From NCBI GenBank assembly GCA_013314775.1, contig JABUFB010000008.1, positions 725,036 through 789,035 on the forward strand: DNA of 64,000 nt, given 5' to 3'. Under the pieces are notes generated by a model. It saw nothing but the letters and a program-made list of their open reading frames with translations, was not told the origin of the DNA and ran no database searches. The number at the start of each line of letters is the position of its first letter. Position 1 is the first letter of the stretch. Shown piece after piece: positions 1,521-58,023 of the stretch. This DNA comes from Armatimonadota bacterium. Its GTDB lineage: Bacteria > Armatimonadota > Zipacnadia > Zipacnadales > JABUFB01. A program made the translations under genes and the position numbers.

Positions 1521-1603
1521 GGCTTGGGAAGGTCGTGCCGGCTGCGCGGGGAATACGTGGTCTTCGCTCGAATGTCGGCAGGCGCATGCAAGGGAGGACT
1601 GCA

Positions 1604-3775: not shown

Positions 3776-3885
3776 TGCATTGGGGCCAGTGTCAAGAGTC
3801 TGCGTCACGGGGGCGATCGGATTGGCAGGCGATCTGAGGGGGTAAAAGGATGTTTCAGCCCACATTACACTCAGGAAAGGCAACC

Positions 3886-4503
3886 ATGAAACGCAGGCCT
3901 CTCGCCGGCTTCACACTCATCGAACTCCTGGTCGTCATCGCGATCATCGCGATCCTGGCAGCCATTCTCTTCCCGGTTTTCGCGCGAGCGCGGGAGAAAG
4001 CCCGGCAGAGTTCCTGCCTGTCCAACCTGAAGCAGATCACCCTCTCGCTACTCATGTACGCCGACGACTGGGACGAGACCCTTCCCTACTACCAGCGGCC
4101 GTGGGGCTACGCGTGGTACGACGACATCATCCCGTACATGAAGAACCGGCAGATTCTCGTCTGCCCCAGCAAGACCGACTGGAACCCCAGTGCCCCCACC
4201 CACAAGACGGGGTACGGTCTCAACGAAACCGTCTTCCCTTCGGGCAATGGCTCGCCGTGGCCGGTCCCGCCGATACCGCTGAGCGCCATCCAGAGCCCAT
4301 CGGAGACCATCGCAGGAGCCGACAAGAACCAGGGGAATGTGTACATCGTCGGGCTGTCTTTCTCGGGTTCGACTGCCTGGCCGTACAATGTGGACACCCG
4401 ACACAATGACGGCGCGAACTTTGCCTTCATGGACGGGCATGCCAAGTCCATGAGTAAGGGGGGCACGTGGTCGACGAGCAACACCATGTGGGACCTGTAC
4501 TGA
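3886..4503 (+). CDS. Prepilin-type N-terminal cleavage/methylation domain protein, DUF1559 (H-X9-DG) family.
   Basis: [50 protein letters not shown] is a type IV pilin-like N-methylation site plus hydrophobic helix. [16 protein letters not shown] near the C-terminus is the H-X9-DG motif. An RBS (AGGAAAGG) precedes the ATG at 3886. Confidence 0.8.
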
Positions 4504-5461: not shown

Positions 5462-5917
5462 TCAGCCGCCCTTCGTGTGCCACTGGTAGCCGATCTCAGG
5501 GTCATCCCAGGGCCGGCGGAGTTCATCAGGGCTGGCGTAGACGTAGTGCTCGGTGGGCACGTTGAGGACCAAGGCCATCTCGCTGCCCAGGCAGACCCAG
5601 CCGTGCCACACCCCCGGGGGAATCTGGATCAGGGTGCGGTTCAGTTCGCCGATGACGAAGGAGTTGGTTTCGCCGCGGGTCGGCGAGTTCTCGCGGCCGT
5701 CCCAGAGAGCGACTTTCACATTGCCCTTCACGCAGCAGAAGGAATCTGTCTGCTTGGCGTGAGCATGCCATGCCTTCACAATGCCCGGATACGTGGCGGA
5801 GATGTAGCACTGCCCGAATCCAAGGAAAAGCTCCTCGTCGTTGCGCAGGACCTCCATGAGGTACCCGCGGTCATCGGCGATGAGCTTCAGCGGCTTGGTG
5901 CGGACGCCATCAATCAT
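5462..5917 (-). CDS. RmlC-like cupin (dTDP-sugar 3,5-epimerase / 3,4-ketoisomerase family).
   Basis: The core KPLKLIADDRGYLMEVLRND...WHAHA...GNVKVALWDGRENSPTRGE is typical of RmlC/FdtA-type cupins. The likely start is the internal Met at 5917 (MIDGVRTKP). Confidence 0.6.
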   Translation of the reverse strand: MIDGVRTKPLKLIADDRGYLMEVLRNDEELFLGFGQCYISATYPGIVKAWHAHAKQTDSFCCVKGNVKVALWDGRENSPTRGETNSFVIGELNRTLIQIPPGVWHGWVCLGSEMALVLNVPTEHYVYASPDELRRPWDDPEIGYQWHTKGG

Positions 5918-5994
5918 CGTCCGGGTTCCCTCCCGGTAACAAGCGCAACGGGCAATGGCCGGCAACGGATCACGACCAGGTCCCGCAGTCCGGC

Positions 5995-7332: not shown

Positions 7333-8732
7333 GGGGTCAGGCGGGCCTCCCAGACGGGGCCCGAGGCGGACTTGGGCCGGATGATCACCAGAGAATAGTT
7401 ATCGAGCCCCAGGTACTGCCTGGCCACTCTCTGGACGTCTTCGGCGGTGACCGATTCGAGAGTGGTGATGTAATCGATTGCGAACCGGTAGCTATCGATG
7501 GCCTCGTAGAAGCCCATCGAACTCACCTGGTTCTCGTAGCTGGAATTGTCGAAGGAGTAGCCGGCGCGAACCACGGCCTTCACGCCTGCAAGCTCCTCGG
7601 GCGTGAGAAGTGTATTGTGCAGCTTCTCAATCTCCGCAAGGATGATCTCACGGGTCTCAAGCTCCATTTGGGGCTTCGCCACACAGGTGACCAGGAACAG
7701 GCCGGGATCGCGTTTGGTGATGAACTCTACTTCGGGAACTGCCCCGATTTCCTCCTGACTGACGAAGGCCTGCATGAGACGGGCTTGCTGACCCTCGATG
7801 AGCAAGGCGTAAATCAGGTCCAGTGCGCAGACGTCGGGCTTGTTGGCGATACCCGCCGCGTGCCAGCCGAAGGACACCAGCGTGTTGCGGGTATCGGCTT
7901 TCTCCAGACGCGTACGCGTGTCGGTCTGGATCGGCTCCGGATCTGGTTCTCGCAGAGCAATGTTTCCCCGCGGGTACTTGCCGAACAGCTCACGGATCAG
8001 ATCGAGAGCCGCGGCGGCATCTATGTCTCCCACCACGATGAGGGCAGAGTTGTTGGGGACGAAATGGTTGCGGTGGTAAGCCGCGAGGTCCTCGGCATCG
8101 TACGCGGCGATGCCGTCAGGAGTGCCCGAGACCGGCCGCCCATATGGATGCTGGCGAAAGGCAGTCTCCCACATGGTCCGCCACAGCTTTCCCACCGGGC
8201 TGCTTTCCACGTCCATCAGGCGCCTGCGCAGGGTCTGAAGCTGATTGGCCCAGATCTCCTCTCTGAAGGAGGGCTCGAAGGTGGCGCGCGCAGTCCGGGC
8301 CAGGGCTTCGGGGAAGAAACCAGCGCTCGTGGTGATCCGGACGTGAGTCCCATCCGGAGTGGTGTAGCTGCTGATTCTCCCACCGCGATCTTCGATCCAG
8401 TCGGACAGGGAGAGGTCGTCGCCCGGAGCCGGGACGTCGTGGATCATGTGCCGGACCAGATCAGAGAGCCCCTGCTCGCTGTCCGTTTCGTAGAGCGGGC
8501 AGGCCTTGATGACGAGACCGGCGGATACCACTCCCCAGTTGCGCTCCGGTTTGATGATCACGCGCAGGCCGTTATCGAGGGCCGTCTCGCTGACGGTCTG
8601 CGAGTTGATCACCGGCGCCCCGATCGCGGGAAGAGTGAGCAGCAGCGTGACAGGCAGGAGCATGGAGGGGAATAGCCCAACTGCGGCATAGCGGTAAGCC
8701 CCGTGGCGAATGAGCATCCAGTTTCTCCTCAC
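7329..8732 (-). CDS. M16 family peptidase-like protein.
   Basis: NGLRVIIKPE...GLSDLVRHMIHD has an M16 N-terminal-domain layout. The canonical HxxEH is replaced by RHMIHD. A 4-nt overlap links it to the acyl-CoA ligase stop at 8729-8732. Confidence 0.6.
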   Translation of the reverse strand: MRRNWMLIRHGAYRYAAVGLFPSMLLPVTLLLTLPAIGAPVINSQTVSETALDNGLRVIIKPERNWGVVSAGLVIKACPLYETDSEQGLSDLVRHMIHDVPAPGDDLSLSDWIEDRGGRISSYTTPDGTHVRITTSAGFFPEALARTARATFEPSFREEIWANQLQTLRRRLMDVESSPVGKLWRTMWETAFRQHPYGRPVSGTPDGIAAYDAEDLAAYHRNHFVPNNSALIVVGDIDAAAALDLIRELFGKYPRGNIALREPDPEPIQTDTRTRLEKADTRNTLVSFGWHAAGIANKPDVCALDLIYALLIEGQQARLMQAFVSQEEIGAVPEVEFITKRDPGLFLVTCVAKPQMELETREIILAEIEKLHNTLLTPEELAGVKAVVRAGYSFDNSSYENQVSSMGFYEAIDSYRFAIDYITTLESVTAEDVQRVARQYLGLDNYSLVIIRPKSASGPVWEARLTP

Positions 8733-10285
8733 GACACAGGTTCATCGGCCATCGCTGCCCGCGCCTCGTCGCGCAATTCGCGCTTGAGGATCTTCCCCGT
8801 CGCCGACTTGGGCAGTTCTGGTCGGAACTCCACGAACCTGGGCACCTTGTAATTGGCCAGGTGAGACTTGCAGTGCTCAATGATCTGAGTCGCGTCAAGC
8901 TGCGTGCCCTCTTTGAGGGACACGTAAGCTTTGACGTCCTCTCCGCGAAGTCTGTTCGGGATGCCCACCACCGCGGCCTCGGCCACGGCTTCCAGGCGGT
9001 ATAGGACATCTTCGACCTCGCGGGAATACACGTTCATGCCACCGACGATGATCATATCCTTCTTGCGATCCACGATTCGCAGGTAACCATCAGCATCCAC
9101 CGTGGCCACGTCGCCGGTGAGCAGCCATCCGTCGCGGATTGTTTCCGCAGTGCGCTCCGGGTCGCGCCAGTAGCCCTTCATCACGTTGCGCCCGCGCACG
9201 CACAGTTCGCCGGGCACCCCCACCGGGGCGATGTTGAAGTCGTCGTCCCGGATGGTGACCTCGATTTCCGGCAGTGGTGGCCCGATGGTGCCGATCCTGC
9301 GCGTCCCATCAGTGCGGTTCACGCTGACCACCGGGGAGGCTTCGGTGGGGCCGTAGCCCTCTATCATATATACTCCGAAGCGCCGCTCGAATCCCTTGAG
9401 CACCTCATCGGGCATTGCCGCGCCGCCGGAGACGCCGATGCGCAGACAGGAGAGGTCGAAGTCGCGGTCGGTCTTCATCCCCAGCATCACCGCGTACATG
9501 CTGGGAACTCCCGCGAACACGGTGCAGCGGCGGCTTTCGAGAGTCTCAAGTACTGACAGCGGCGCGAATTTCGGGATCAAGACCGTATGTGCGCCGAGGC
9601 TCAACGGCAGAACCATGCAGACTGTCGCGCCGAAGGAGTGGAACAACGGCAGGACAGTGCCGAACACATCATTCTCGTTCACATCAATGGCCACGGCGCA
9701 TGAGGCTGCGTCGAACACAAGGTTGTCGTGGGTGAGCATGGCGCCTTTGGGCTGGCCCGTGGTTCCGGATGTGTAGATGAGAACCGCCACATCATCCGGA
9801 CGCGCATCATGGACCGGCGGCGCGCTCTGGGGTGGCTTGAGAAGGCCCTCGAAGCTAACCACGTCGTCGAGCCGGCTCGGGCCGCTGATGATGAGCCGTT
9901 TGAGACAGGACACATTCGTGCGGATCGCAGCCATCACCGGCTCCAGCAGGTTCAGACCGATGAGGGTCTCCGCCTCCGCGTTCGCCACGATGTAGGCCAA
10001 CTCTTCAGGCCCCTGGAGACAGTGGAGCGGAACGACAGTCGCCCCAAGCTGCAGGGCGGCGAAGTATGAAATGATGAATTGGGGACAGTTGGGGAACAGA
10101 ATAGCAACGCGCTGATCCGGCCCGACCCCCAGCTCTGCGAGAGATGCCGCGCACGCTCCGACTGCCCGGGAGAGATCAGCATAGGTGAGTGTCTTGTCCT
10201 CGAAACTGACCGCAGGACGTTCAGGGAACCGCGCCGCAGCGGACAGGAAGGTGGCAGTCAAGCTGGCAGGTGGGCATAGGGACAT
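8729..10285 (-). CDS. AMP-dependent synthetase/ligase (long-chain fatty-acid--CoA ligase family).
   Basis: It carries the AMP-binding signatures YTSGTTGQPKGAMLTHDNL, GYGPTE and a conserved C-terminal K(SATGKILKREL). The start is set at the Met (MSLCPPASL, 10285) just before the acyl-activating core. Confidence 0.8.
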   Translation of the reverse strand: MSLCPPASLTATFLSAAARFPERPAVSFEDKTLTYADLSRAVGACAASLAELGVGPDQRVAILFPNCPQFIISYFAALQLGATVVPLHCLQGPEELAYIVANAEAETLIGLNLLEPVMAAIRTNVSCLKRLIISGPSRLDDVVSFEGLLKPPQSAPPVHDARPDDVAVLIYTSGTTGQPKGAMLTHDNLVFDAASCAVAIDVNENDVFGTVLPLFHSFGATVCMVLPLSLGAHTVLIPKFAPLSVLETLESRRCTVFAGVPSMYAVMLGMKTDRDFDLSCLRIGVSGGAAMPDEVLKGFERRFGVYMIEGYGPTEASPVVSVNRTDGTRRIGTIGPPLPEIEVTIRDDDFNIAPVGVPGELCVRGRNVMKGYWRDPERTAETIRDGWLLTGDVATVDADGYLRIVDRKKDMIIVGGMNVYSREVEDVLYRLEAVAEAAVVGIPNRLRGEDVKAYVSLKEGTQLDATQIIEHCKSHLANYKVPRFVEFRPELPKSATGKILKRELRDEARAAMADEPVS

Positions 10286-10705
10286 AGCGCAACCTCGGAC
10301 GCAGGCCCCGCGGGGAAACGCGCCGGACAGCCTGCTCGGTTGGAGCACGGCGGAAGCGTGTTGGCGGACAGGATACACCCTGACTCCGAGCCCGTCAAGG
10401 AAGCGCGGCCGTTGGGCAGGACCGTCGGTTTTGCGGAATGCGTGCCGGCCTCGTACGTGGCCAGCGTTCGCTGCCTGCGGTGTTGGGGCCGTGCCGTGTG
10501 CTATCAGGCTCCGTCAGGAGCTGTCCGCCTGTAGCCCCCGTCGGAAAGGAATCCGGGGGCTTCCGCTCCCGTCTACAGGCTGCCGCCCGCGCCGCGGGCT
10601 GTGGGGCAAGGGCTCACGGCGAACGGCGCCCTGAACGGGTATCCGGCCCCAGCCGGCACACATCCAGCAGAATCGATGCTCGTGAAGCGCCTTCGGCCTG
10701 GCTCT

Positions 10706-11461
10706 TCAGCCCATGTGCGCCCCACCATTGATGTCCAAGATGTTCCCGGTCATATGGGTGCAAAGGTCAGATGCGAGATAGACGCAGGCGCGCCCGATGT
10801 CCTCCACAGTGCCCAATCCCAGCGGAATCTCCGAAGACAACTGGGCGATGCGCTTGTCCCCCACTGTCTCATGCAACAACTCCGTCTCCACGATCCCCGG
10901 CGCAACCGCGTTGACGATAATCCCGTACTTTGCCACGTCCCGGGCCAGGGTCATGGTGAAAGCATTGATCCCTCCCTTGCTCGCGGCATAGTGGACGTGG
11001 CCGTATAATGCGCCTCGCCGGGACACAATGGAAGTCATGTTGATGATGCGCCCGCCGCCAAGGTCACGCATGATCGGCACCGCGGCCCGGCAGCACAGGA
11101 AAGTGGATTTCAGGTTTGTGTCGATGATGAAGTCCCAGTCTTCTTCAGTCATCTCCAGAATCGTCTTCGGCTGGGATGTACCCGCATTATTGACCAGCAC
11201 GTCGAGGGAGCCATATTCGGAGCAGACGGCGTCGAACAGACGGGACACATCATCGGCACGGGAGACGTCGGCCTGGAGGACGAGACATGACACCCCGAAC
11301 TCCCGGACCTGGCTTGCGACCGATTCTGCCTGTTCCGCCGAACTGCGGTGGCAGATGGCGATCGAAGCTCCCTCGCGGGCCATCTCCACGGCGATTCCGC
11401 GGCCAATTCCCCGTGACGCGCCGGTGATCAGCGCCACTTTGTCTTTGAGAAGCATGATCAT
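10706..11461 (-). CDS. SDR family oxidoreductase (3-oxoacyl-ACP reductase FabG-like).
   Basis: It has TGASRGIGRGIA (the Rossmann TGxxxGIG motif), an NNAG motif and a YAASK catalytic motif. Its ATG overlaps the upstream stop at 11458-11461. Confidence 0.85.
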   Translation of the reverse strand: MIMLLKDKVALITGASRGIGRGIAVEMAREGASIAICHRSSAEQAESVASQVREFGVSCLVLQADVSRADDVSRLFDAVCSEYGSLDVLVNNAGTSQPKTILEMTEEDWDFIIDTNLKSTFLCCRAAVPIMRDLGGGRIINMTSIVSRRGALYGHVHYAASKGGINAFTMTLARDVAKYGIIVNAVAPGIVETELLHETVGDKRIAQLSSEIPLGLGTVEDIGRACVYLASDLCTHMTGNILDINGGAHMG

Positions 11462-13482
11462 CTCCTGCCCTTCCGATAGACGAGAACTGCGATAGACTGC
11501 GGGGGTAGGGAGTTGCCCGGTTCGAACCCTGAGAAAGGCGTGGCACCCTCCTCAAACACCCAGCCTTCATGGACTCTGGGCGCGAATTGTACCGGCTCCC
11601 CCGTGTCGTTCCAGCCCACGACCGCCAGGCCGTCGGTGCTCTCGAACCCCTTCACACGGAGGAGGTCGGTGCCCGGCTCGCAGCTGTCCTGGTCGGTGAA
11701 GCGCCCGTTCATGAGAAGCTCGGGCCAGCGCTCCCGCAGGGCAATAAGACGCCGCATATACTCGCCGTAGGCGGGGGCATCGCGCAGGTCTCCACGGCAG
11801 CGCCAGATCTCCACATCGAAGATCCAGCCATGGGTAAATGCCCAGTGCATCCGGCGCTCGTGATCGCGCTCGTCGCGGATCTCACGGGTGCTCAGGATGA
11901 TCTCGGGGAAGGTGTAAAGGAACAGCTCCGGCAGCGCCTGCGGCCCTGGAGACATGCCGTAAGTGCAAGTGTGAACGTAGTCCGCGTGGCGCACCAGGCA
12001 GTCGGAGACCAGTTCAGTCCCGAAGGCCAGGCCGGGCCGCGGATCGACCACCCGCCGGCGCATCTCCTTCATGTTCCGGTCCTTGCCCGGCCCTTGGGCA
12101 AATGCCGGGCCCGGATGCGGGTGGGATTTGTCGAAACACAGGTACGGGACATGTCCGCCCATCTGATCGAAGAAGATGGAATCCGCGCCCAGGTCGGCCA
12201 TGCGCAGACCGATCTCGATGAGCTTCTCGCGCCACTCATCCGTTGACTGGCACGCGGCCGCGAACGACTTGGCGCCGAAGTTCCGCAGATAGGTCCCGTC
12301 GCCCGAGAACTTGTAGTGCTCCCGGTACTCGCTTCCCTGGGAAGTCTTCAGCGAAATGCGCTGCCCCACGCTCTTGTAGAAGTCCGTGTCCACGTCGATG
12401 ATGTGTCCGTTGGCGTAGAGCAAGATCCGGCCGCCGCGTCTGCGCACCTCGGCGATGGCGTCGCGCAGGGCTTGTTCGCCCCCTAGCTCCTCGTCGGCGA
12501 GGTACTCCGGGTAACCGTTGTCATGTCCGCCCCGGAACCAGCCGAAGACCAGCAGAGCGTCGATTCCATACTTCCGCCCTGCTTCGAAGCAGTCAACGAG
12601 GTCCGCGTACCGATAGAAAATCTCGCCATACTGGTGCTTCATGATGATCCGTTGCCAGCCGTGCATGCGGTTGACCCAGTCCGGCCGGGCGGGCTGCGAC
12701 CACCAGACCTTGTCCACCCAGGAACGGTAGAAACGGGCGTCCGTGTGCCAGTCGCCGCGATGCAGGCGGACTACGGAGAGCGGAGCATCCCAGCGCCCGG
12801 ATTCGGTAAAGGGGTATCGTGCGATTCCGGCGGACATCTTGCCGGTGGGGGTGTCCAGCACCTGCAGGAGACCCGTCGTCTGGAACGACGCGTCCAGTGA
12901 GAAGATGGACATCGATGCCCGCTGACCGTAAATGCCGAACCAGGGCATGCTCATGGGCCCGCCCGGATAGAAGCCGCAGTCAAGGATGTGAACCTGATCG
13001 GGGGCCATGTATCCGGTATGCAGGGAAGCCAGGTGCGCCTTCGGGTTGGGTATCCGCCTGCCGAAACCTTCCGGGCGAATGAGAAGATCGCGGGACGGGT
13101 CATCAGACAGGCCTGTGAACAGCCCGATGAGCGGGAACCAGAACTCCTCCACCGTGATGCTGCCGGGGTTGTCCAGCGAGGCGCGGCATTCCAGGCAGTC
13201 GCCGATGATGCGGAACGTCAGCTGAACCGCGAGGGGTACGGGTGCGCCGCCCAGCGAAACGCCATCGTAGACGGCGGCGAGCATATCTTCTTGCTTCTCA
13301 ACGCGCGCGGCAAGAATCGGGTAATCTGCGGCCGCTTCGTGCCGGTTGCCCTTGCCCGCGATGATGCGGAACAGGCCGCGGTCGCCGCTAATCAGCGCCT
13401 CCTCGCCGGGGAATCCGAGTTCGAAACGGGCCCCGTCTTCGCTGACCGCGAACCGGATGTGGCTACTTTGTATCTCGAGCAT
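11458..13482 (-). CDS. Putative glycoside hydrolase-like TIM-barrel protein (uncharacterized GHL/DUF-type family).
   Basis: It is about 670 aa. The middle region (DALLVFGWFRGGHDNGYPEY...ILLYANGHIID...FFDQMGG) resembles glycoside-hydrolase-like (GHL) TIM-barrel domains. It is co-transcribed with the SDR. The start is set at MLEIQS (13482). Confidence 0.45.
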   Translation of the reverse strand: MLEIQSSHIRFAVSEDGARFELGFPGEEALISGDRGLFRIIAGKGNRHEAAADYPILAARVEKQEDMLAAVYDGVSLGGAPVPLAVQLTFRIIGDCLECRASLDNPGSITVEEFWFPLIGLFTGLSDDPSRDLLIRPEGFGRRIPNPKAHLASLHTGYMAPDQVHILDCGFYPGGPMSMPWFGIYGQRASMSIFSLDASFQTTGLLQVLDTPTGKMSAGIARYPFTESGRWDAPLSVVRLHRGDWHTDARFYRSWVDKVWWSQPARPDWVNRMHGWQRIIMKHQYGEIFYRYADLVDCFEAGRKYGIDALLVFGWFRGGHDNGYPEYLADEELGGEQALRDAIAEVRRRGGRILLYANGHIIDVDTDFYKSVGQRISLKTSQGSEYREHYKFSGDGTYLRNFGAKSFAAACQSTDEWREKLIEIGLRMADLGADSIFFDQMGGHVPYLCFDKSHPHPGPAFAQGPGKDRNMKEMRRRVVDPRPGLAFGTELVSDCLVRHADYVHTCTYGMSPGPQALPELFLYTFPEIILSTREIRDERDHERRMHWAFTHGWIFDVEIWRCRGDLRDAPAYGEYMRRLIALRERWPELLMNGRFTDQDSCEPGTDLLRVKGFESTDGLAVVGWNDTGEPVQFAPRVHEGWVFEEGATPFSGFEPGNSLPPQSIAVLVYRKGRR

Positions 13483-13562: not shown

Positions 13563-14381
13563 ATGCTGCGAACCTGCGCCGCGCACCGAAAGGGGATCAG
13601 GCCCTTGTCTGACCAACCCACTCTCCGAGAGCGCATTCTGAGTGGCCCCACACTCTACGGGCCATCATTGACGTCTGCATCGCCGGCCGCCGTGGAGATA
13701 GCGGCGCTGGCGGGTTGCGATTTCGTCTGGCTTGAGGTGGAACACTCTTCGCTGGACGTCATGCAGCTGGAGCACCTGTGCCGGGCGGCCGAACTCCACG
13801 GAATCCTTTCACTGGCCCGCACGGCGGACCCCAGCCGCCCCTGGATTCTTCGCCCCCTGGAGGCAGGGGCGAAGATCGTCCTCGTGCCCCAGGTCCATAC
13901 GGTTGAGCAGGCAGCGGCGGTGGCTGAGTGGGCCAAGTTCCCACCTCTGGGCAAGCGCGGGTACAATACGGGCAGTCGCGGCCTGGGTTACGGCGCCATG
14001 GCGACCACTCCCAATGAGATCCTGGACAAGGCCAATCGTGAGACGGTGTTGCTGGTCCAGATCGAGTCCCAGGAGGCACTGGACAACGTGGAGGGCATCG
14101 CGGCGATTGAAGGAGTGGATGGGCTGTTCTACGGGCCGGGTGACATGTCGCTGGACAAGGGCATTCCCTCAGACTGGGACAATGAAGAGCTTCTCGCGGC
14201 TGGAGAACACATCATCCGGACCGCCCGAGCCAACAGGAAGATATCCTCGAGCACCTGCCCCACCATGAACATGGCTGCCCGATGGAAGCAGGCAGGCGCG
14301 AACATGCTGGTCGTAGGTGGCGAACTGGGCCTGCTGCGGAAGGCTTTCATGGATCGCGTGGCCGAAGTCCGCGCACTGTAG
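13563..14381 (+). CDS. HpcH/HpaI family aldolase (2-keto-3-deoxy sugar-acid aldolase-like).
   Basis: LYGPSL...VWLEVEH...IVLVPQV...VQIESQEALDNVEGIA...LFYGPGDMS matches the HpcH/HpaI/citrate-lyase-beta fold signature. Confidence 0.75.
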   Translation: MLRTCAAHRKGIRPLSDQPTLRERILSGPTLYGPSLTSASPAAVEIAALAGCDFVWLEVEHSSLDVMQLEHLCRAAELHGILSLARTADPSRPWILRPLEAGAKIVLVPQVHTVEQAAAVAEWAKFPPLGKRGYNTGSRGLGYGAMATTPNEILDKANRETVLLVQIESQEALDNVEGIAAIEGVDGLFYGPGDMSLDKGIPSDWDNEELLAAGEHIIRTARANRKISSSTCPTMNMAARWKQAGANMLVVGGELGLLRKAFMDRVAEVRAL

Positions 14382-14402
14382 GCTGCTCGACACGGACGAG
14401 AG

Positions 14403-14432
14403 AGCCCGCCTTCCCAGACCGAAGGCGGGCTC
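14403..14432. terminator. Bidirectional terminator hairpin between convergent genes.
   Basis: GAGCCCGCCTTC-ccagacc-GAAGGCGGGCTC is a perfect 12-bp stem between the aldolase (+) and the Wza-like gene (-). Confidence 0.45.
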
Positions 14433-14460
14433 CTATGTGTGTCCGATCGGGTTGAATGCG

Positions 14461-17400
14461 TCAGTCGAACAGGCTGACGATTGCGCTGACGACCCAGAAC
14501 GAGTCACGGAGGGTGCGCCAGAGGTCTCCACGTGCCGGTGCGCGCGGCGGGACATAGAAAATGTCGCCGGGCTTCACCTTGACCGGGTCCGGCACCTTCC
14601 CCTGCCGCAGTTTGGCGAGGTTGATCTCGGTGTGTTCCGTGGTCCCGTCGGGACGCTTCCGGATCATGATCACGCGCTGTTGAGCGCCCGGCGCGAGGGC
14701 AGCGCGGCTGACAATGTCCATGATGCCCCATTCCGGGTCCAGCGGATACGGCCCCGGACGCCCCACGGCGCCCAGCACGTAGATCTCGTCCATTGCCGGC
14801 ACAACCACCACATCGCCGGGCTGCAGGTCCATGGTCTGATCCAGCGCACCCTCGTCCTGCAGGAGCCTCAGGTCCCTGTAGATCGGCTCCTGATCCGGGC
14901 GGTACACGGTCACGCGGGTCAGATCGGCAGTGGCGAGGGGCTGCATGAGCGTGACCACTCGCAGCAGGTCGCGGTTGGCCTTCTCGCGGATATTCACGGC
15001 GCCATTGCGCTGCAGGGCACCGAGGACCATGATGTTATTGACATCGTCCGTCGGCACATAAACCAGATCGCCGGGCTGGAGTTCGAGGTTCTGGGTCATG
15101 TCGCCCTCTTCGACAAGGGCGCGGTAATTGCGGACGATGGCTTCCCCGTCACGATAGATGGTTACGCGGTCCAGGCCGCCTTCGGGATTGGGTGAGGCCA
15201 GAGGCAGCAAGCGTACCAGGTCGCGCTCCTTCGCTCCGTGGATGCTGATCGCGCCGGGCCTCGCCACCTCGCCCGCGAACACCACCGTTTCGGTCGCCAT
15301 GGGCACGTGTACGATATCCCCCGGCTCGAGCATCATGTTCTGCGACGTGTCGCCCTCTTCCTCGAGCCGCGTGAGGTCGCGGACGATTCTCTCGCCCTTG
15401 CGGTAGACGCTGACCCGCGACAGATCGGCGGTGGGCCGATTCGGCCCCGCGAAGGTGACCGTAGCGAACAGGTCATTGCTGCGCCCGACTTCCTGGGGCA
15501 CAACGCCGGAGCGCATGACCTGGCCGGTGATGATGATGCTCCCCGTGCCAAGCTGGGGCACGAGCACCCGGTCGCCGTCTTCGAGAAGCAGTGTCTGGCT
15601 GGTGTCGCCCTGGTCGAAGTAAGCGCGCAGGTTTCGCACGATCACCTCATCGCCCCGATGGACGGTGACATTGGTCAGATCGGCCATGGGGTCCCAGCCC
15701 GCAGCGGTCACTACCCGGGCGAGATCGCGCTGCTCTTCGGTCACCAATTCGATGGTCCCGCGACGCTGGACGGCGCCGGTGATGAGGACGCTCACGGTGT
15801 CCAGGCCCGGGACGAGAATGCGGTCGCCGGGCAGGACCTCGGCATCCACCGGCACCGGCACACCTTCCTCCACTAGACCCTTCAGGTTGTACACGAACTG
15901 CTCGTCACCCCGGAACACTGTGACTCGCTTCAGGTCCGCATTGGGCAGCGGGCCGGATGCCAGCAAGGTATCCACCAGCCTGCGGTTCTCGGGGTCGGAG
16001 ACCCGCACCTGCCCCGCTCGTTGGACCGCGCCAGTGATGAGCGCCGTCCCGCGGTCGATGGGGATGACCACGAGGTCGCCGTCTTCCAGCTGGAGGGTCT
16101 GCGAGGTGTCGCCCTCGTACAGGTACGCCTGAACGTCGCGGGTGATCTTCTCACCGCCGCGATGCACCGTCACCCGGCGCAGGTCGGCGAAAGGAGCCGG
16201 TCCGGATGCGGCGATGAGCCGGGCAAGGTCCCGGGTATCCTCGTCGCCAAGGGCAAGGACGCCGGTGCGTCCTGCGGCGCCGGCCAGGAGAATACTGTCC
16301 TCGTATGCCGGGACCTTGATGATATCGCCGTCCTCCAGCAGGAAGCTCTGGGACAGGTCGCCGGTCTCGTATAGTTTTTTCAGGTCACGCTTGATCTGCT
16401 GTTCGCCCCGGAAGATAGTGACCCTGGACAGATCGGCGTTGGGCATCGGCCCGGCGAGAGTGACCACGCGCAGGAGATCGCGCTGTTTGTCATCGAAGAG
16501 CTGGATGCTGCCGGATCGGGCGACCGCGCCCATGACAAGGACGGTATGCTCAACGCGCGGCACCACCACCACGTCGCCATCCTCAAGCTGCAGTGAGTAG
16601 GCTTCCAGCCCGGTTTCGATGAAGGCCTTGATGTCGCGCTCCGTGGTATTGCCGCCGCGATGGACCTTGACGCGGGTGAGGTCGGCGTTGGGCAGCGGCC
16701 CGGCAAGGGTAACCAGGCGGGCCAGGTCACTCCGCGGGTCATCCGCAACGGTGAGCAGCCCCGCCTGGGCCACCGCACCGGTGATCAGAATATTGCGCAG
16801 CTCGCGGGCGGGGACCGTGATGATGTCTCCGGGCTCGACATACATGGACTGGGTGCGGTCGCCGTCTTGGATCATCGCCAGCAGGTTGCGGACGATCTTG
16901 TTCTGCCCGCGGTGGACGGTAACGTGTTCGAGATCGGCCTGGGGCAGAGGTCCGGCGGCCAAGATCAGGCTCGCGAGGTCGCGGTCAAGCGTTGGCACAA
17001 GCCTCAGCACTCCGCCTCGGCTCAGCGCACCAGTGAGCATGATGCTGTCTTCGACCACGGGGACGCGGATCATGTCCCCGTCTTCCAGGGCGAGAGTGGC
17101 CTGGCGATTGCCTTCCTCGATGTACGGTTTCACATTGACCAGAATCTGTTTGCCACCACGGCTAACCATGACCCGGGTCAAGTCGGCATAGGGCAGCGGA
17201 CCAGACATGAGGATCAGGCGGCCAAGATCGCGCCAGTCATCATCCACGAGGCGCACGATCCCGCCGCGCTCTACGGCGCCTGACAGAACCACGTTCTCGT
17301 CGATCTCCGGCACAACAATGACATCCCCGTCTTCCACAGGGATGCTGTTTTCCATGCGGCCTTCGTCCACCGCGGCCTGCAGATCGCGGATGATGGTCTC

Positions 17401-18996
17401 GCCATTGCGGTGGATGGTGACGCGTCTGAGATTGGAGCCCGTGCCCGGTCCGGAGACGGTGACGATGCGCAGAAGGTCGTGGTCTTCGTCCCGCGCGATC
17501 TGGAGCACTCCCTGGCGGGATACTGCGCCGGTCACAAGCACGCTGTCAACCTCCCGTGCGGGCACCATAACCATGTCGCCGGGTTGGAGGTCGAGATTCT
17601 GAGACAGGTCGCCTTCGTCCATGAGCGCCTGCAGATTGCGGACTATGGTCTCCTTGCCGCGATAGACGGTGACCCGGGTGAGGTCACTCATGGGGCCCGG
17701 GCCGGCGGTTGTGATGATGCGCAGCAGGTCGCGCTCGGTCACCCCGCGCAGGTTGAAAGTCCCGGTTCGCCCCAGCGCTCCCATGACCAGCAGCGTCTGG
17801 GAGACCCCTTCGGGAATCACCAGCACGTCACCGGGCAGCAGCGAGGATTCATCGGGGGCCTGACCAGCTTCGATGAACCGCTGCAGGTCTACACTGATGC
17901 TCTTGCCGGCCCGGATGATCTCCGCGCGGCTCAGATCCGCGGTGGCAGTGGGGCCGCCGGCGGCTGCCAGGCCCTGCAGGACGGGGATGGGGCTCCCCAT
18001 GCGGAAGACTTGAGGGGTGTTGACCTGTCCGACCACCGAAATGCTGCCGGCCTCGTGCACCACCAGTACATCCCCGCCGCGGAGCACATGGTTCTGGCTG
18101 GTACTGCCGCCCTTGAGCAGCGCGTTCAGGTCGATCTCAAGCGGGTCGGAATCGGCACGCAGGAGGATGGCGCGGGAGCGGTCGGCAATGGGAGAGAAGC
18201 CCTGGGACATGCGCAGGGCGTCAAGCACCCGCACTTCGCGGTCCACGGGGAGCAGGAGACTGCCGGGGGCCTGAACCTCCCCGAGGATCATGACTTCCTC
18301 GCGCACCCGAGGAACATAGACGGTGTCGCCATATTCCAGGCGATGTTCGTGCCCAAGACCGCCTTCACCTCGAAGGCCGCTGCAATCTACTTCGATGGGC
18401 TTACCGCCCGGGTGTGTGAGGCGCACCCGGCGCAAGTCAGCGTACGGGCCGGGACCGGCGGCGGCCACGGCGTCGGTGAGCGTGGAGCCAAAGGGCAAGG
18501 TGACCGCCCCGTTGCGGGACAGTTCGCCGGACACGTACACCTTGCGGATGGAATTGATCTCGTCCACGGTCACCTTGACCGACGGTTTTCGTACGAGCGT
18601 GCTGAGACGTTTGACCAAGAACGCCTCGGCTTCGCGCAGGGTCATCCCGCGCAAGCCGACCTGGCCGAGGAGGGGCATGGGGATGGATCCACCGGGGCCA
18701 ATGCGCGCGGCGGTGGAGAGCGTGGGCTCGTTGAAGACCACTATCTGCACCACATCGCCGGCGCTGAGCCGATAGTCGGTATCCACGGAAAAGCGGGGCG
18801 TGAGGGAGCGCACCGGCCCGGCCCCCGCTGTCCGGGACTTTGCTGAGGAGGCAGCCTGCGCGAGCGCTGTATCGCGGGAGGCCTGGTCGTCTTTGAGACT
18901 TGCCGCACAGGCGGTTCCAGCGCTGCAAGATACCAGGAGGGCGACGAGAAGGGCAACCCTTCCGAAGCCGGCCCTAGACGTGGCCCTGCGGAACAT
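14461..18996 (-). CDS. Giant Wza-like polysaccharide biosynthesis/export protein with a Poly_export domain followed by about 15 tandem SLBB (soluble-ligand-binding beta-grasp) repeats.
   Basis: The N-terminus is a signal peptide (MFRRATSRAGFGRVALLVALLVSCSAGTACAA) with a strong RBS (GGGGAGGA) before the ATG at 18996. A Poly_export-like segment follows (YRLSAGDVVQIVVFNEP...MPLLGQV). Units of about 80 aa then recur, each with LxGPxPxADLxRVxVxRG...L...GDxxxVP. The matching DNA motif GGCGTTGGGCAGCGGCCCGGC recurs at a period of about 240 bp. Confidence 0.8.
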   Translation of the reverse strand: MFRRATSRAGFGRVALLVALLVSCSAGTACAASLKDDQASRDTALAQAASSAKSRTAGAGPVRSLTPRFSVDTDYRLSAGDVVQIVVFNEPTLSTAARIGPGGSIPMPLLGQVGLRGMTLREAEAFLVKRLSTLVRKPSVKVTVDEINSIRKVYVSGELSRNGAVTLPFGSTLTDAVAAAGPGPYADLRRVRLTHPGGKPIEVDCSGLRGEGGLGHEHRLEYGDTVYVPRVREEVMILGEVQAPGSLLLPVDREVRVLDALRMSQGFSPIADRSRAILLRADSDPLEIDLNALLKGGSTSQNHVLRGGDVLVVHEAGSISVVGQVNTPQVFRMGSPIPVLQGLAAAGGPTATADLSRAEIIRAGKSISVDLQRFIEAGQAPDESSLLPGDVLVIPEGVSQTLLVMGALGRTGTFNLRGVTERDLLRIITTAGPGPMSDLTRVTVYRGKETIVRNLQALMDEGDLSQNLDLQPGDMVMVPAREVDSVLVTGAVSRQGVLQIARDEDHDLLRIVTVSGPGTGSNLRRVTIHRNGETIIRDLQAAVDEGRMENSIPVEDGDVIVVPEIDENVVLSGAVERGGIVRLVDDDWRDLGRLILMSGPLPYADLTRVMVSRGGKQILVNVKPYIEEGNRQATLALEDGDMIRVPVVEDSIMLTGALSRGGVLRLVPTLDRDLASLILAAGPLPQADLEHVTVHRGQNKIVRNLLAMIQDGDRTQSMYVEPGDIITVPARELRNILITGAVAQAGLLTVADDPRSDLARLVTLAGPLPNADLTRVKVHRGGNTTERDIKAFIETGLEAYSLQLEDGDVVVVPRVEHTVLVMGAVARSGSIQLFDDKQRDLLRVVTLAGPMPNADLSRVTIFRGEQQIKRDLKKLYETGDLSQSFLLEDGDIIKVPAYEDSILLAGAAGRTGVLALGDEDTRDLARLIAASGPAPFADLRRVTVHRGGEKITRDVQAYLYEGDTSQTLQLEDGDLVVIPIDRGTALITGAVQRAGQVRVSDPENRRLVDTLLASGPLPNADLKRVTVFRGDEQFVYNLKGLVEEGVPVPVDAEVLPGDRILVPGLDTVSVLITGAVQRRGTIELVTEEQRDLARVVTAAGWDPMADLTNVTVHRGDEVIVRNLRAYFDQGDTSQTLLLEDGDRVLVPQLGTGSIIITGQVMRSGVVPQEVGRSNDLFATVTFAGPNRPTADLSRVSVYRKGERIVRDLTRLEEEGDTSQNMMLEPGDIVHVPMATETVVFAGEVARPGAISIHGAKERDLVRLLPLASPNPEGGLDRVTIYRDGEAIVRNYRALVEEGDMTQNLELQPGDLVYVPTDDVNNIMVLGALQRNGAVNIREKANRDLLRVVTLMQPLATADLTRVTVYRPDQEPIYRDLRLLQDEGALDQTMDLQPGDVVVVPAMDEIYVLGAVGRPGPYPLDPEWGIMDIVSRAALAPGAQQRVIMIRKRPDGTTEHTEINLAKLRQGKVPDPVKVKPGDIFYVPPRAPARGDLWRTLRDSFWVVSAIVSLFD

Positions 18997-19174
18997 GTAT
19001 TCGTCCTCCCCAGCTCGAGGTGTCTGCATTGTGCGTCGTCTATAGACTGCAATTCTTGCGGCAATTCGCCGCTGGGGTCGGCAGGCGGGCACAAATGGCG
19101 CCCGAAGCACGCCGCTGATATTATAGCACACTCATTCTGCCTAGACTATAGAGGGCCCCTCTTGGACAAGTCAA

Positions 19175-19188
19175 GCCCGCCGGCGGGC
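19175..19188. promoter_or_regulatory. Perfect 14-nt palindrome in the divergent promoter region between the Wza-like gene and recJ.
   Basis: GCCCGCCGGCGGGC is self-complementary and sits in the 266-bp divergent intergenic region. Confidence 0.2.
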
Positions 19189-19262
19189 TACGAGGTCTGT
19201 TTGACTCGATCCAGCGTCTACCGTATACTGCCCCCAAAGGAAGACACTGGAATTCGGTACAT

Positions 19263-20975
19263 ATGCCTGCATGCAGACCCGCATGGGACGCCGCGCCACG
19301 AGACTTTGATTTTGAAGCGCAGATGGCCCGCGAACTGGGGATTCACCCCGTCATAGCGGGCGTCATGCGCCGCCGCGGCATAACCACTCCAGACCACGCA
19401 CGCCGCTTCCTCCACCCCGATCTGGCCGACCTGCATGACCCGTTCCTATTGCCCGATATGGACATCGCGGCCCGGAGAATCGTGAAGGCCATCGAAAACC
19501 ATGAGACCGTCCTGGTCCACGGTGACTACGATGTGGATGGAATTACCGGTTCTGCCCTGATGGTCCGTTTCCTGTCGAAACTGGGGGCGGACGTGCAGTA
19601 TCACTTGCCCCATCGTCAGATTGACCACTATGGGCTGAGCGTGGAGGCGATGCGCGAGGCCGCGCGGGTGGGTGCCCATCTCGCCATAGCGGTGGATTGC
19701 GGTGTCACCGGCTTCGAGGCGGTGGCGGAGGGGCGGCGCCTGGGCATGGACGTGGTGGTCATCGATCACCACGAGCCCGAGGACAGACTACCCAACGCCA
19801 ACGCCATCGTTGATCCAAAGCGCGCCGACTCCACCTATCCCGAGCGCGATCTGGCCTCTGTCGGCCTCTGCTTCAAGACCGCGTCGGCCGTTTGTACCCT
19901 CATGGACGTGCCCCAGGAATCCCTGCAGAGGGCATTCCTGGACCTGGTGGCCATGGGAACCATAGCCGACGTGGTCCCGCTCATCGGCGAGAACCGCATC
20001 CTGGCCAGTCACGGCTTGAGGAGCATGGCAGGCACGCGCAAAGTGGGGCTGCAAGCTCTGATGCGTCTGTGCAATGCAGACGGAGACATCCGAGCTTCCG
20101 ACGTGGCCTTCCGTATTGCCCCGCGGATGAACGCCGCCGGGAGAATGGGCGACGCGACTGATGCCCTGGAATTGCTTCTCACGAATGACCCGGAGACTGC
20201 CACCCGGTTGGCTCTCTCCCTGGATAACGCGAACCGCGAGCGTCAGCGGGTCCAGGAGCGCATCTATCGGGATGCCCTGGAGATGATAGAGGGAGAGGTG
20301 GACTTCGAGAACGAGCACGTCGTGGTGCTGGCGTCTCCTGAATGGCACGTGGGCGTTGTGGGCATTGTGGCCTCGAAAATCATGGAGACCCACTCGCGCC
20401 CGACGATCCTCATGGTGCAGGAAAACGGTGAGGCCCGGGGATCCGCACGGAGCGTTCATGGGTTCGATATCAGCCAGGCCCTGCAGGGGTGCACCGACCT
20501 GCTGCTGTCCCACGGTGGGCATGCCCTGGCGGCCGGGATGAGTCTGCGCATTGAGAACCTGCCGGACTTCCGCCGACGCCTGAACTGCCTCGCCGCCGAA
20601 TCCCTGCGTTTGGAGGACCTTCAGCCCAGATTGGAGACCGACGCTGAGGTGTTGCTGGACGAGGTGGACGCGGAACTGCTTGAGGGTCTGGCGCAGCTTG
20701 AGCCCTTCGGGCAGGCGAACCCGGCGCCCTTGTTCGTGACCCACGGGGTGGATGTGCTGGATGTCCGGACTGTCGGAAGGGACAACCAGCACCTGAAACT
20801 GTTCGTGAGCCAGGGTGACCGCCCGGTGGACTGTATCGGGTTCGGAATGGGTCCTGAAGCCGACTGGATCGACCGGGGATCTACTATCGATATCTGCCAC
20901 ACTCCCGAGATCAATGAGTACAATGGGACCCGAGGGGTCCAACTGCGTCTCCAGGCTGTTCGCGCGGCACGGTAA
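19263..20975 (+). CDS. recJ: Single-stranded-DNA-specific exonuclease RecJ.
   Basis: It carries the DHH motif (VLVHGDYDVDGITG), a DHHA1 region (GGHALAAGMSL) and a C-terminal OB-like region. Confidence 0.85.
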   Translation: MPACRPAWDAAPRDFDFEAQMARELGIHPVIAGVMRRRGITTPDHARRFLHPDLADLHDPFLLPDMDIAARRIVKAIENHETVLVHGDYDVDGITGSALMVRFLSKLGADVQYHLPHRQIDHYGLSVEAMREAARVGAHLAIAVDCGVTGFEAVAEGRRLGMDVVVIDHHEPEDRLPNANAIVDPKRADSTYPERDLASVGLCFKTASAVCTLMDVPQESLQRAFLDLVAMGTIADVVPLIGENRILASHGLRSMAGTRKVGLQALMRLCNADGDIRASDVAFRIAPRMNAAGRMGDATDALELLLTNDPETATRLALSLDNANRERQRVQERIYRDALEMIEGEVDFENEHVVVLASPEWHVGVVGIVASKIMETHSRPTILMVQENGEARGSARSVHGFDISQALQGCTDLLLSHGGHALAAGMSLRIENLPDFRRRLNCLAAESLRLEDLQPRLETDAEVLLDEVDAELLEGLAQLEPFGQANPAPLFVTHGVDVLDVRTVGRDNQHLKLFVSQGDRPVDCIGFGMGPEADWIDRGSTIDICHTPEINEYNGTRGVQLRLQAVRAAR

Positions 20976-21032: not shown

Positions 21033-22049
21033 TTGAAGGCCCCCGTCAACCAGGCGGTCCTGCTGGTGGGTGGACAGGGCACGCGATTGCGTCCCCTGAC
21101 CTGTGATCGCCCCAAGGCTCTCGTACCCTTGTTGAATGAGCCCCTGCTGGCCTGCGAACTGCGCCTTCTGGCACGCCACGGCATCACTAACGTGATCCTT
21201 TCCGTTGGTTACCGCGCGCGCGTCCTCCAGGATGCGCTGGGGGATGGGTCGCGCTGGGGGGTAAGGCTGCGGTACGTTGAGGAGCCTTCGGCACTGGGAA
21301 CCGCCGGCGGTCTGCGGAATGCCCTGGAGCTGCTGGATGGGCCCTTCGTGGCGATGAATGGGGACCTGGTGTACGACGTAGACCTGTCCGCCTTTGCCGA
21401 AGCCCACCTGCGAGCGGGCGCGATGGTGAGTTTCTGCCTGCGGCGAGTGGAGGATATACGGCGTTTCGGGCTGATCCAGTGCGACGATTCCGGTCGAGTC
21501 GTGGCCTTCCGCGAAAAGCGGGAGGTCGACGAGACCGGACGGAATACTGTGAACAGCGGGGTCTATCTCATGGACCCGGAAGCATTGCTGCGGGTGCCCG
21601 CGGGCGTTGAGTGGTCCAACGAGACCCAGCTGTTTCCCGGTCTGCTCCAGGAAGGCTGCCTCTTGCTGGGGTTCATGCCCGAACAACAGGGCTACTGGGC
21701 TGACGTGGGCACAGTAGAGTCGTACCTGCAGACCAGCCGCGACCTGCTGCGAGGCGCAATTCCGTGGATGCGGGGAGCGGTCGCCACATCTGTCATGGGA
21801 CGCACCGAGGACATCGAACAACCGGTGGGGCTGGCTGAAGGCGTACGCATTGAGGATGGCGCACGAGTAGGGCCGGAGGTGTGCATTGGCGCGCGTGGCA
21901 CAGTCGGCGCCGGGGCGCGCATCCAGGCGTCTATCCTGTGGGAAGATGTGACCATTGGGCCCAATGCCCATATTCACAACTGCATAATCGGCGCCGGGGT
22001 GACCATCGGCGCGGGCTGCAAGTACAGTGGAAAGGTCGTCGTCCGGTGA
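21033..22049 (+). CDS. NDP-sugar pyrophosphorylase (mannose-1-phosphate guanylyltransferase-like; N-terminal nucleotidyltransferase plus C-terminal left-handed beta-helix).
   Basis: LLVGGQGTRLRPLTCDRPKALVPL is the sugar-nucleotidyltransferase signature. Hexapeptide repeats follow at the C-terminus (IGARGTVGAGARIQASIL...IGAGVTIGAGC). A TTG start is implied by the ORF track. Confidence 0.75.
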   Translation: MKAPVNQAVLLVGGQGTRLRPLTCDRPKALVPLLNEPLLACELRLLARHGITNVILSVGYRARVLQDALGDGSRWGVRLRYVEEPSALGTAGGLRNALELLDGPFVAMNGDLVYDVDLSAFAEAHLRAGAMVSFCLRRVEDIRRFGLIQCDDSGRVVAFREKREVDETGRNTVNSGVYLMDPEALLRVPAGVEWSNETQLFPGLLQEGCLLLGFMPEQQGYWADVGTVESYLQTSRDLLRGAIPWMRGAVATSVMGRTEDIEQPVGLAEGVRIEDGARVGPEVCIGARGTVGAGARIQASILWEDVTIGPNAHIHNCIIGAGVTIGAGCKYSGKVVVR

Positions 22050-39643: not shown

Positions 39644-39990
39644 TTGGTGGAGGCGGCGGGAATCGAACCCGCGTCCGAAGAGAGGAACGACACTGCGTCT
39701 ACGAGCGTAGCGGCCGATTCGATCTCGCCGTGGCTTCCCTGGTCGCCCGGTATCCCCGGCCAGCCCGAATTTGGTTCCCGCGTCCCTTAGCGGGCGTTTG
39801 GGACGTCGGTATCCAACCCAGTTGATGTCTCATCCGAAGCGGGTTGGCTCGCCCCGGGAGACATGGCTACGTTAAGCAGCCAGTGCCAGTTCGTTGTTGG
39901 CAGTTATTCTTTTCCCGCGTTTTACGAGACTCGGGGATCTCGGCTCGCAGCCTTGCCTTTCCTGTCTCCCCGTCGAAACCAATCGCCCCC
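39644..39990 (-). ncRNA. ssrA: tmRNA (SsrA) with encoded tag peptide (A)ANNELALAA.
   Basis: The minus-strand 5' end is GGGGGCGAUUGGUUUCGACGGGG. The 3' end is GGACGCGGGUUCGAUUCCCGCCGCCUCCACCA (T-arm, acceptor stem with a G3-U pair, CCA). The internal reading frame is GCC AAC AAC GAA CUG GCA CUG GCU GCU UAA. Confidence 0.88.
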
Positions 39991-49790: not shown

Positions 49791-50008
49791 GGGGACTCTC
49801 GCGCGGGATGAGTGAGCGCCTGCGGACCTGTGCAGATAGTACTCCACGCGGGGAGAGACGGCAACGGAGAAGCGAAGCAGGCTGGAAACGCGCAGTACAG
49901 GGTTTGTGGGAGTGTTCTGACCCGCTGCCAAGTCTCCCCTCCGCTCAGGCGTAGTTTTGCGGCACGTTGGCTGCTTATCTTGCGGACGTTACAAGCACCA
50001 CCCGTCCG

Positions 50009-51190: not shown

Positions 51191-51875
51191 GAGCGCGGGT
51201 ATGCCTCGTGGGGTCCCGAAATGGGGGTGACCGCTTCCGGGCCGGTGGTTATAATATGGGCCATAATACCCACACCGGCCCCCGCGAAGCAACCGGGGGA
51301 GGGTGGTCATGTGGCAGGGGCCCCATCCGCCCATCATGGGTCACGCCGGGAGAAGCGAAACACACGGAGGGCGCTGCACTGTCGGCGTCTATGCCCTGTC
51401 GCCGCCGTGAAACCCCGGTGGGGCCGTCCGTATGCAGCCAGGGGCGGGCGCCCCTGGAATCAGGTGTACGCGACCGCAGAGACGCGAAGCCCCAGCGGGC
51501 AGACAGGAACCGCTGCTCATCTGCCGCCCCCGTTGGGGGCTGACGTCGGACTGCAACCGAGGACGGAGCGCGCGTCATCAATACGGTTGTGTTCGCGGGA
51601 GCGCTTTGCCCCGCATGAGTTGGACACACGTGTGCTCATCGTTCACCTGGAGTTCGAGGGACTCGGTGACTGACTCGGCTGACACTTGAGCCGCCCACCC
51701 CGCCCCGGAGATAACATGGCGCGAATTGGCAAGAACAGGTATGTCTATCCACAGGCACTGATCCCATCCCGGGGTCAGTGCCTGCTTCCGTATGCCTGAT
51801 CGGGGCCGTGCACGGGCCCACTTCGCGACCACACCGGCGGCTTTCCCCGCCTCAAACTCACAGGAGCAATACGTG

Positions 51876-58009: not shown

Positions 58010-58023
58010 TGGGCGGGCTGTTG

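Follow-up and report, generated by a model that had tools for sequence, protein, structure and literature searches.

The 64-kb stretch of Armatimonadota DNA analysed here (the window) carries a complete gene for a 1511-aa protein of the outer-membrane polysaccharide export (OPX) family, in which a putative signal peptide, a disordered linker of ~40 aa and a Poly_export domain are followed by 16 SLBB units and a 28-aa tail. On balance, we think that this gene encodes a functional member of the OPX (Wza) family that acts as a very long periplasmic export conduit, and by analogy with Wza a tube spanning the periplasm is a plausible form for it to take. Sequence and predicted fold both indicate that the protein is a Wza-family (OPX) member built of beta-grasp units.

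The family assignment draws on several kinds of match. The two features expected of an OPX protein, a Poly_export domain (PF02563) and at least one SLBB beta-grasp domain after it, are both present: PF02563 is matched at E 3e-18 in the whole protein and at E 5e-20 by the fragment alone (66-72 bits against a cutoff of 28), and whole-protein Pfam searches return SLBB_2 at E 2.6e-93 and SLBB at E 3.4e-34. The NCBIfam model PRK15078, 'polysaccharide export protein', is matched above its cutoff at E 1.7e-107, and phmmer aligns residues 72-270 with Wza structures (2J58, 2W8I, 9R60 and others) at E 1e-18 to 3e-22. A profile built from the 16 units matches domain 2 (D2) of solved Wza structures at E 6.5e-16. 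Moreover, an AlphaFold2 (AF2) model of residues 31-396, with a predicted local distance difference test score (pLDDT) of 78.8, has Wza protomers as its closest Foldseek matches over D1-D3 (E ~1e-18, 266 columns, root-mean-square deviation 5.6-5.9 A, 26-27% identity), such that the predicted fold of residues 70-340 superposes on these three domains. The corresponding model of the C-terminal residues 1231-1511 (pLDDT 83.9) is likewise closest to Wza, at E 2.8e-11; linear poly-ubiquitin chains come second, which is what one would expect of beta-grasp domains in tandem, and Foldseek matches to GfcC 3P42 (E ~1e-6) are attributed to the same common fold.

Pfam, the profile match to Wza D2 and the predicted fold all agree with an earlier reading of this DNA (the original prediction), which had proposed a Wza-like protein in which a single Poly_export module precedes an unbroken SLBB array. 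The concern that the repeats might not be SLBB domains at all falls away, since PF02563 is matched and 15 of the 16 units are matched individually by SLBB_2 at E <= 0.01. Other whole-protein Pfam hits, to JmjC_2, Cupin_2/3/8 and HVO_A0114 (E to 5e-10), contain no individually significant stretch and sit on the recurring GD..V.VP strand, and they were treated as repeat-summed false positives. The same false-positive families recur in the precomputed annotations of orthologs.

The SLBB array and its conservation

A hidden Markov model (HMM) built from the units resolves exactly 16 contiguous copies between residues 150 and 1483, each 80-84 aa long, with gaps of only 0-3 residues between HMM envelopes. 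The unit size of ~80 aa given in the original prediction stands, and its count of about 15 becomes 16. The consensus of the 16 units (..GAV.R.G...L.....RDL.R.V..AGP.P.ADL.RVTV.RGGE.I.RDL.AL..EG...Q...LEPGD.V.VP) reproduces the AGPLPNADL-type pattern described at that time, and in alignment each junction between units (..GD.V.VP, 3-5 residues,.V.V.G.V) repeats the D2-to-D3 junction of Wza. Unit 1 is the best conserved across orthologs.

Is the repetition also present in the DNA? A DNA motif had been reported to recur with a period of ~240 bp. With up to 3 mismatches allowed, this 21-mer has two copies (16435 and 16684), where chance predicts 0; with up to 5, there are five in-register copies (15937, 16435, 16684, 16936 and 17185), spaced by 249-252 bp or double that distance. 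The motif thus fits its original description only in part. Tandem Repeats Finder, run over 14000-19500, reports no ~250-bp DNA repeat, just a trivial 6-bp one. Aligned in register, the units have 49% DNA identity at the median and 63.5% at most, and no exact run of more than 14 nt is common to any two of them. The periodicity exists at the protein level only. The suggestion that the array is a substrate for recombinational expansion or contraction is not upheld, since such identities and run lengths are too low for homologous recombination between the present units, and a recent recombinational origin of the array was rejected on the inter-unit DNA divergence together with the positional orthology described below.

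An independent Logan assembly (SRR6186653) encodes the identical protein, and the closest genome match is a 94%-identical ortholog of the same length in the Armatimonadota metagenome-assembled genome (MAG) JAGPGE01. Strong purifying selection acts on the gene: compared with this ortholog, its ratio of nonsynonymous to synonymous substitution rates (dN/dS) is 0.069 as a whole and lies at 0.02-0.12 in every one of the 16 units. Ten further full-length orthologs of 1415-1516 aa share 43-67% identity with it and have 15 or 16 units. When nine orthologs were compared unit by unit, the best match was always the same-position unit of the window protein, and the departures are single-unit losses only (unit 3 in P0005, unit 7 in P0012 and unit 2 in P0013). 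This same-position orthology argues that the array is old and predates the split of these lineages, and that each position is separately constrained. The comparison of repeat number across relatives, proposed alongside the original prediction, returns 15-16 units in all full-length orthologs at 43-94% identity, and by sequence the array is of fixed length.

Repeat arrays in metagenomes are prone to collapse or expansion, and it had been allowed that the gene might be a frameshift-fused pseudo-array. An assembly artefact or a decaying array of this kind is effectively excluded. A single uninterrupted open reading frame (ORF) spans 14461..19131 of the minus strand, the units are too diverged at the DNA level to mis-assemble, and the recovery of an identical protein in an independent assembly, the same-length ortholog in a MAG, the ten more orthologs with 15-16 collinear units and the low dN/dS all speak against it. 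A further element of the original prediction was a lineage with an enlarged periplasm. The closest genome is the Armatimonadota MAG, and nothing here supports an enlarged periplasm; a planctomycete origin, which that phrase implied, was rejected because the best genome match is to Armatimonadota and the match in Planctomycetota has only 30% identity over its best aligned segment.

Giant relatives and their gene neighbourhoods

How unusual is an array of this length? The unit profile matched 20,729 of 1.84 billion representative proteins at E <= 1e-3, and among the best 150 of these 20,729 there are ~59 clusters with at least 10 matched units and 14 with at least 16, the maximum being 28 (2313 aa). 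The named members with giant arrays come from Limnochordia and other Bacillota, Armatimonadota, Kosmotoga and one Spirochaetaceae MAG, and all are annotated merely as 'SLBB domain-containing protein'. Unit number is stable within a clade (15-16 here) and varies from 11 to 28 between phyla. For Class-1 OPX proteins, the published range is Poly_export-SLBB(1-14)-Wza_C (Saidi et al. 2022, PMC9603273). The rarity originally claimed on the basis of a canonical one to three SLBB domains is contradicted by these published arrays of up to 14 and by the 28 units of the census. The window protein is therefore rare and near the long end of the range, and it is neither a record nor a new architecture, since such proteins are catalogued and unstudied.

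The nearest published counterparts appear in Table S2 of the same paper: Fimbriimonas ginsengisoli peg_3156 (1356 aa; Poly_export, 10 SLBB and Wza_C) and Chthonomonas calidirosea peg_1166 (1154 aa; Poly_export and 7 SLBB), which are tabulated without discussion in the available portion of the text (PMC9603273). Likened by architecture, they share with the window protein the phylum (Armatimonadetes/Armatimonadota), what looks like a Sec rather than a lipoprotein signal, and a Poly_export domain with a long SLBB array. They differ in how the units were counted, because our count of 16 comes from a dedicated HMM whereas the published counts come from PF10531 alone and are probably too low. They also differ in classification: on HHpred matches to GfcC they are filed as Class 2A or 2B, whereas the match of the window protein to the GfcC family (Caps_syn_GfcC_C, PF06251), which overlaps unit 16, fails to reach the threshold (E 0.054; 14 bits, with the cutoff at 20). 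A search of the available literature found no paper beyond PMC9603273 that treats such long SLBB arrays.

The giants of Limnochordia, other Bacillota MAGs and Kosmotoga (P0015, P0021, P0026, P0133, P0135 and P0299) resemble the window protein in combining a Poly_export domain with 13-28 SLBB units and a short tail whose amphipathic pattern is W(x)18-22, and they are 23-28% identical to it over nearly the full length. The difference lies in their gene neighbourhoods. A Wzz/GNVR polysaccharide co-polymerase (PCP) gene is found directly downstream of the OPX gene in Limnochordales P0015, in the Bacillota-like MAGs P0021, P0025 and P0026, in P0014 and in Kosmotoga P0299, whereas the Armatimonadota window gene is unlinked to any. 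The PCP-linked giants (Limnochordales, other Bacillota and Kosmotoga) carry 11-19 units. Most of their loci add genes for a bacterial tyrosine kinase (BY-kinase) and a CpsB phosphatase, and that of Kosmotoga adds a Wzy_C gene. Neighbourhoods of this sort, with their PCP, BY-kinase and Wzy genes, offer the strongest functional support for placing the giants in Wzx/Wzy-type polysaccharide pathways.

A second 16-unit Armatimonadota giant (P0314, 1462 aa) follows GT4, PglD-like, Bac_transf and epimerase genes. This protein, encoded at 8001-12389 of locus L014 (Logan SRR6186653_1865) ahead of three T2SSE ATPase genes, is 26% identical to the window protein; it comes from the same sequencing run as the exact window protein, and the G+C content of its contig is also 0.63. 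A paralog within one genome is one possible reading, and a protein of a co-resident Armatimonadota organism is another.

Two of the giant-OPX loci in Bacillota-like MAGs, L013 (2604-5105 and 1-450) and L009 (1-845), contain genes for LpxB, LptF/G and a large SLH-domain protein, which are markers of a diderm envelope bearing lipopolysaccharide. A protein from a JGI metagenome (P0030, 1110 aa) has a Wzc-like co-polymerase and BY-kinase in its N-terminal ~740 aa fused to a Poly_export and 3-SLBB module; it ends in ..VPERLF with no tail helix and would be a PCP-OPX fusion.

A proposed periplasmic conduit and its rivals

How might a protein of this kind export a polysaccharide? In the model that we favour, Sec export and cleavage of the signal peptide would be followed by oligomerisation, as an octamer by analogy with Wza; a constitutive octamer around a central lumen is a Class-1 trait. 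The ring closest to the inner membrane would then consist of the Poly_export domains, and the 16 SLBB domains would add further rings, one after another along a single axis. The short amphipathic helix at the C terminus, a homologue of the initial part of Wza_C, would insert into or dock at the outer membrane, with a Wzx/Wzy-type polysaccharide passing through the lumen. Oligomerisation, ring stacking, insertion of the tail into the membrane, the substrate and the partner proteins are all inferred.

Read by eye, the N terminus looks like a Sec signal peptide, with a basic region, hydrophobic core and apparent ACA/AS cleavage site; this signal peptidase I-type AxA site is conserved among orthologs, which keep AxA followed by A(G/S)LK. 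Like E. coli Wza, a Class-1 protein, the window protein begins with a Poly_export D1 and continues with SLBB domains, of which it has 16 where Wza has 2. At the other end, a profile made from the last unit and tail of 17 giants aligns with residues 236-338 of Wza, which comprise D3 and the start of the D4 helix (its first ~10 residues). The tail Trp, which is kept in 16 of the 17 giant OPX tails, aligns with the Trp of Wza 'RWNRVISQLV', and AF2 predicts a tail helix at protein residues 1492-1510 (model residues 262-280).

Several observations weigh against such a conduit. When all recognisable ORFs in the 64-kb window were scanned with Pfam, no Wzz/GNVR PCP, Wzc, BY-kinase, Wzx, Wzy or glycosyltransferase cluster came to light, although five ORFs have no Pfam match and a divergent partner could escape this search. 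In two orthologous loci, L007 and L008, the 10 kb around the gene likewise contain no export partners. The original prediction that the gene stands alone, divergent from recJ and with no Wzc, Wzx or Wzy gene adjacent, is thus confirmed by the ORF scans, and no wzb gene lies beside it either. Clustering of OPX genes with PCP and Wzx/Wzy or ABC-transporter genes is common in the family and not obligatory. The lipobox is a second point: Cys24 lies within a lipobox-like LVSC, and this Cys is unconserved in orthologs, being missing from P0004 and P0007, whereas ~78% of Class-1 proteins are lipidated at the N terminus. Moreover, Pfam Wza_C (PF18412) is unmatched on the last unit and tail even at E <= 10 and the tail helix has ~19 residues compared with 35 in Wza, which together weaken the case for a tail that spans the outer membrane. 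Finally, a Wza ring is reportedly ~3 nm high, and with that geometry 17 rings would give a tube of ~50 nm; such a straight stack is roughly twice the typical periplasm. For this reason, the straight-stack geometry is the least secure step of the model.

The short tail helix, a shortened loop in the Poly_export domain and the unconserved lipobox Cys mean that Class-1 and Class-3 traits are mixed in the window protein. In alignment its beta1-beta2 loop is 11 residues shorter than that of Wza 2W8I and has no Tyr. In Wza this extended loop forms a tyrosine gating ring, and a short loop is a Class-3 trait (PMC12819527). The Class-3 proteins WzaB and WzaX of Myxococcus xanthus (9N9A) similarly have a short beta1-beta2 loop and no tyrosine gate (PMC12819527), and the window protein resembles them over D1-D2 (profile E 5e-24, Foldseek E 9e-12). 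An alternative hypothesis is that the protein is a wholly periplasmic funnel whose helix only docks on the membrane or on a separate Wzp/PgaA-like porin encoded elsewhere. The 11-residue loop deletion is a Class-3 hallmark (PMC12819527) and would suit this alternative, as would the lack of a Pfam Wza_C match and a helix of ~19 residues where Wza_C has 35 in Wza and 35-48 across Class 1 (PMC9603273). However, Class-3 proteins are ~200-260 aa long, have 1-2 SLBB domains, and are lipoproteins that partner a Wzp beta-barrel porin. Their C terminus carries a Phe-Phe motif in place of a helix (PMC12819527). The window protein, by comparison, has 16 SLBB domains, no conserved lipobox and a C-terminal helix whose homology to the start of Wza D4, with its Trp, argues against this alternative. 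No beta-barrel porin gene was recognised beside the OPX gene in the window or in loci L007-L015, where several neighbours without a Pfam match leave room for a miss. We consider a funnel of this type unlikely, while giving it appreciable weight. Taken class by class, the protein lacks the extended tyrosine-gate loop of Class 1, it has no above-cutoff GfcC domain (PF06251) after its SLBB domains as in the KpsD-like Class 2, and it has a conserved terminal helix and no recognised porin-like neighbour, which separates it from the WzaB-like Class 3.

It might also be asked whether there is a conduit at all. The short gaps between HMM envelopes and the Wza-like D2-to-D3 junctions suit rigid stacking, every unit position is individually conserved, and five giant relatives outside Armatimonadota lie directly upstream of PCP genes, like classical OPX genes. 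These observations argue against a beads-on-a-string arrangement, in which the array, periplasmic or on the cell surface, would be a multivalent polysaccharide-binding scaffold or ruler. Working as a monomer or a loose oligomer, it would keep a glycan layer in place or in order without channelling it. Such a scaffold is nevertheless in keeping with the nature of SLBB domains as ligand-binding beta-grasp modules, with the monomeric state of Class-3 OPX proteins in solution (PMC12819527), with the absence of linked export machinery in the window's clade and with a predicted straight length greater than an ordinary periplasm. We judge it to be improbable, and the short fixed linkers and positional conservation favour a rigid ring stack over a flexible string.

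An extension of the conduit model can also be envisaged, in which giant arrays are fixed-length, self-sufficient tubes across the whole envelope gap. Ring number (11-28) would be tuned to the membrane distance of the respective diderm lineages (Armatimonadota, Limnochordia and other diderm Bacillota, and Thermotogota), and the Armatimonadota tube would reach the inner membrane without a co-encoded co-polymerase. This extension is speculative, and we give it only a small chance of being correct.

The locus and its meaning

The features of the gene are collected in Table 1. ATG 18996 is the likely start codon within the longer ORF, preferred because a GGAGG sequence lies upstream of it and because the promoter match, which falls in the divergent intergenic region common to recJ (19263-20975, plus strand), would set the transcript start beside the upstream GTG. 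On its other side the gene is convergent with an HpcH/HpaI aldolase gene (13563-14381, plus strand). Rfam searches of 14200-19400, which include the ~140-nt 5' leader, gave only a chance snoRNA match at E <= 1 and no cyclic di-GMP or other riboswitch. The sole terminator-like hairpin (17321-17345) is intragenic, and fewer hairpins were found than expected by chance.

Table 1. Coordinates in the window of the giant OPX gene, its encoded segments and its upstream signals
Feature	Position	Strand	Basis and remarks
Complete gene, 1511-aa OPX-family protein	14461..18996	-	ORF list and translation; stop codon 14461-14463
Sigma-70-like promoter match, TTGACT-18 nt-TATAGT	19145..19174	-	Consensus scan, 10/12 positions; match to consensus only, function not implied
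GGAGG, Shine-Dalgarno-like	19005..19009	-	Read directly from the sequence; 8 nt before ATG 18996
Putative signal peptide, residues 1-31	18904..18996	-	Read from the sequence; MFRRATSRAGFGRVALLVALLVSCSAGTACA with cleavage before AS
Low-complexity linker, ~residues 32-69, Ala/Ser-rich, predicted disordered	18790..18903	-	AF2 pLDDT 29-37; model residues 1-39 are protein residues 31-69
Poly_export (PES) domain, Wza D1 equivalent, residues 71-144, shortened beta1-beta2 loop	18565..18786	-	Pfam PF02563
SLBB units 1-3, residues 150-395, mutually divergent	17812..18549	-	Unit HMM; 20-37% pairwise identity to other units
SLBB units 4-15, residues 399-1400, more homogeneous core	14797..17802	-	Mostly 34-53% pairwise identity
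SLBB unit 16, residues 1402-1483, divergent (20-37% to the rest), Wza D3 equivalent	14548..14793	-	Profile alignment to Wza; AF2 pLDDT 74-87
C-terminal tail, residues 1484-1511, PRAPARGDLWRTLRDSFWVVSAIVSLFD, ending in a predicted amphipathic helix of ~19 residues	14464..14547	-	AF2 prediction

Genes for sugar-nucleotide metabolism occur in the window only as scattered members: an NTP_transferase gene at 21033-22049, a DegT/DnrJ/EryC1 sugar aminotransferase gene at 1535-2881 (plus strand), ~12 kb from the giant OPX gene, and a gene resembling a dTDP-sugar isomerase at 5462-5965. In L007 (8409-9680) and L008 (8297-9568), a DegT/DnrJ/EryC1 gene lies directly next to the giant OPX gene and is divergent from it. 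A DUF6785/DUF6784 gene (31266-33275 in the window) is also found near the ortholog in L007, which with the DegT gene amounts to weak residual synteny.

Elsewhere in the window, ARAGORN identifies a transfer-messenger RNA gene at 39645-39990 (minus strand) with the tag peptide ANNELALAA, and two pseudopilin-like genes with an N_methyl motif and DUF1559 (SBP_bac_10) lie at 3850-4503 and 62239-63111 (both plus strand). Within 48186-51337 (minus strand), a radical-SAM/SPASM maturase-like gene (50009-51337) adjoins an HlyD-family membrane-fusion gene (48186-49931), and the two may be a peptide modification and export pair. Divergent ORFs at 59135-60631 (minus strand) and 60890-62173 (plus strand) have weak matches to the N terminus of neutral/alkaline ceramidase; that of the former is under the Pfam cutoff, and no ORF is called within 57861-59135.

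Research on the OPX family has dealt almost wholly with Wza, which has two SLBB rings, and with the small Class-3 proteins, while the long-array end of the family stands in a supplementary table without structure, genetics, experimental study or rationale. The locus described here is a clean, selected example with 16 individually conserved units, and the comparison with its relatives adds a clade-stable unit number and giants outside Armatimonadota whose genes are wired to those for PCP, BY-kinase and Wzy. The finding is a useful pointer and no surprise in kind. If the rings stack as they do in Wza, the resulting tube would be about twice as long as a typical periplasm, which raises a question of envelope geometry in poorly studied diderm lineages. 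If giant arrays were indeed self-sufficient tubes, the strict conservation of 16 positions would amount to a molecular ruler for envelope width.

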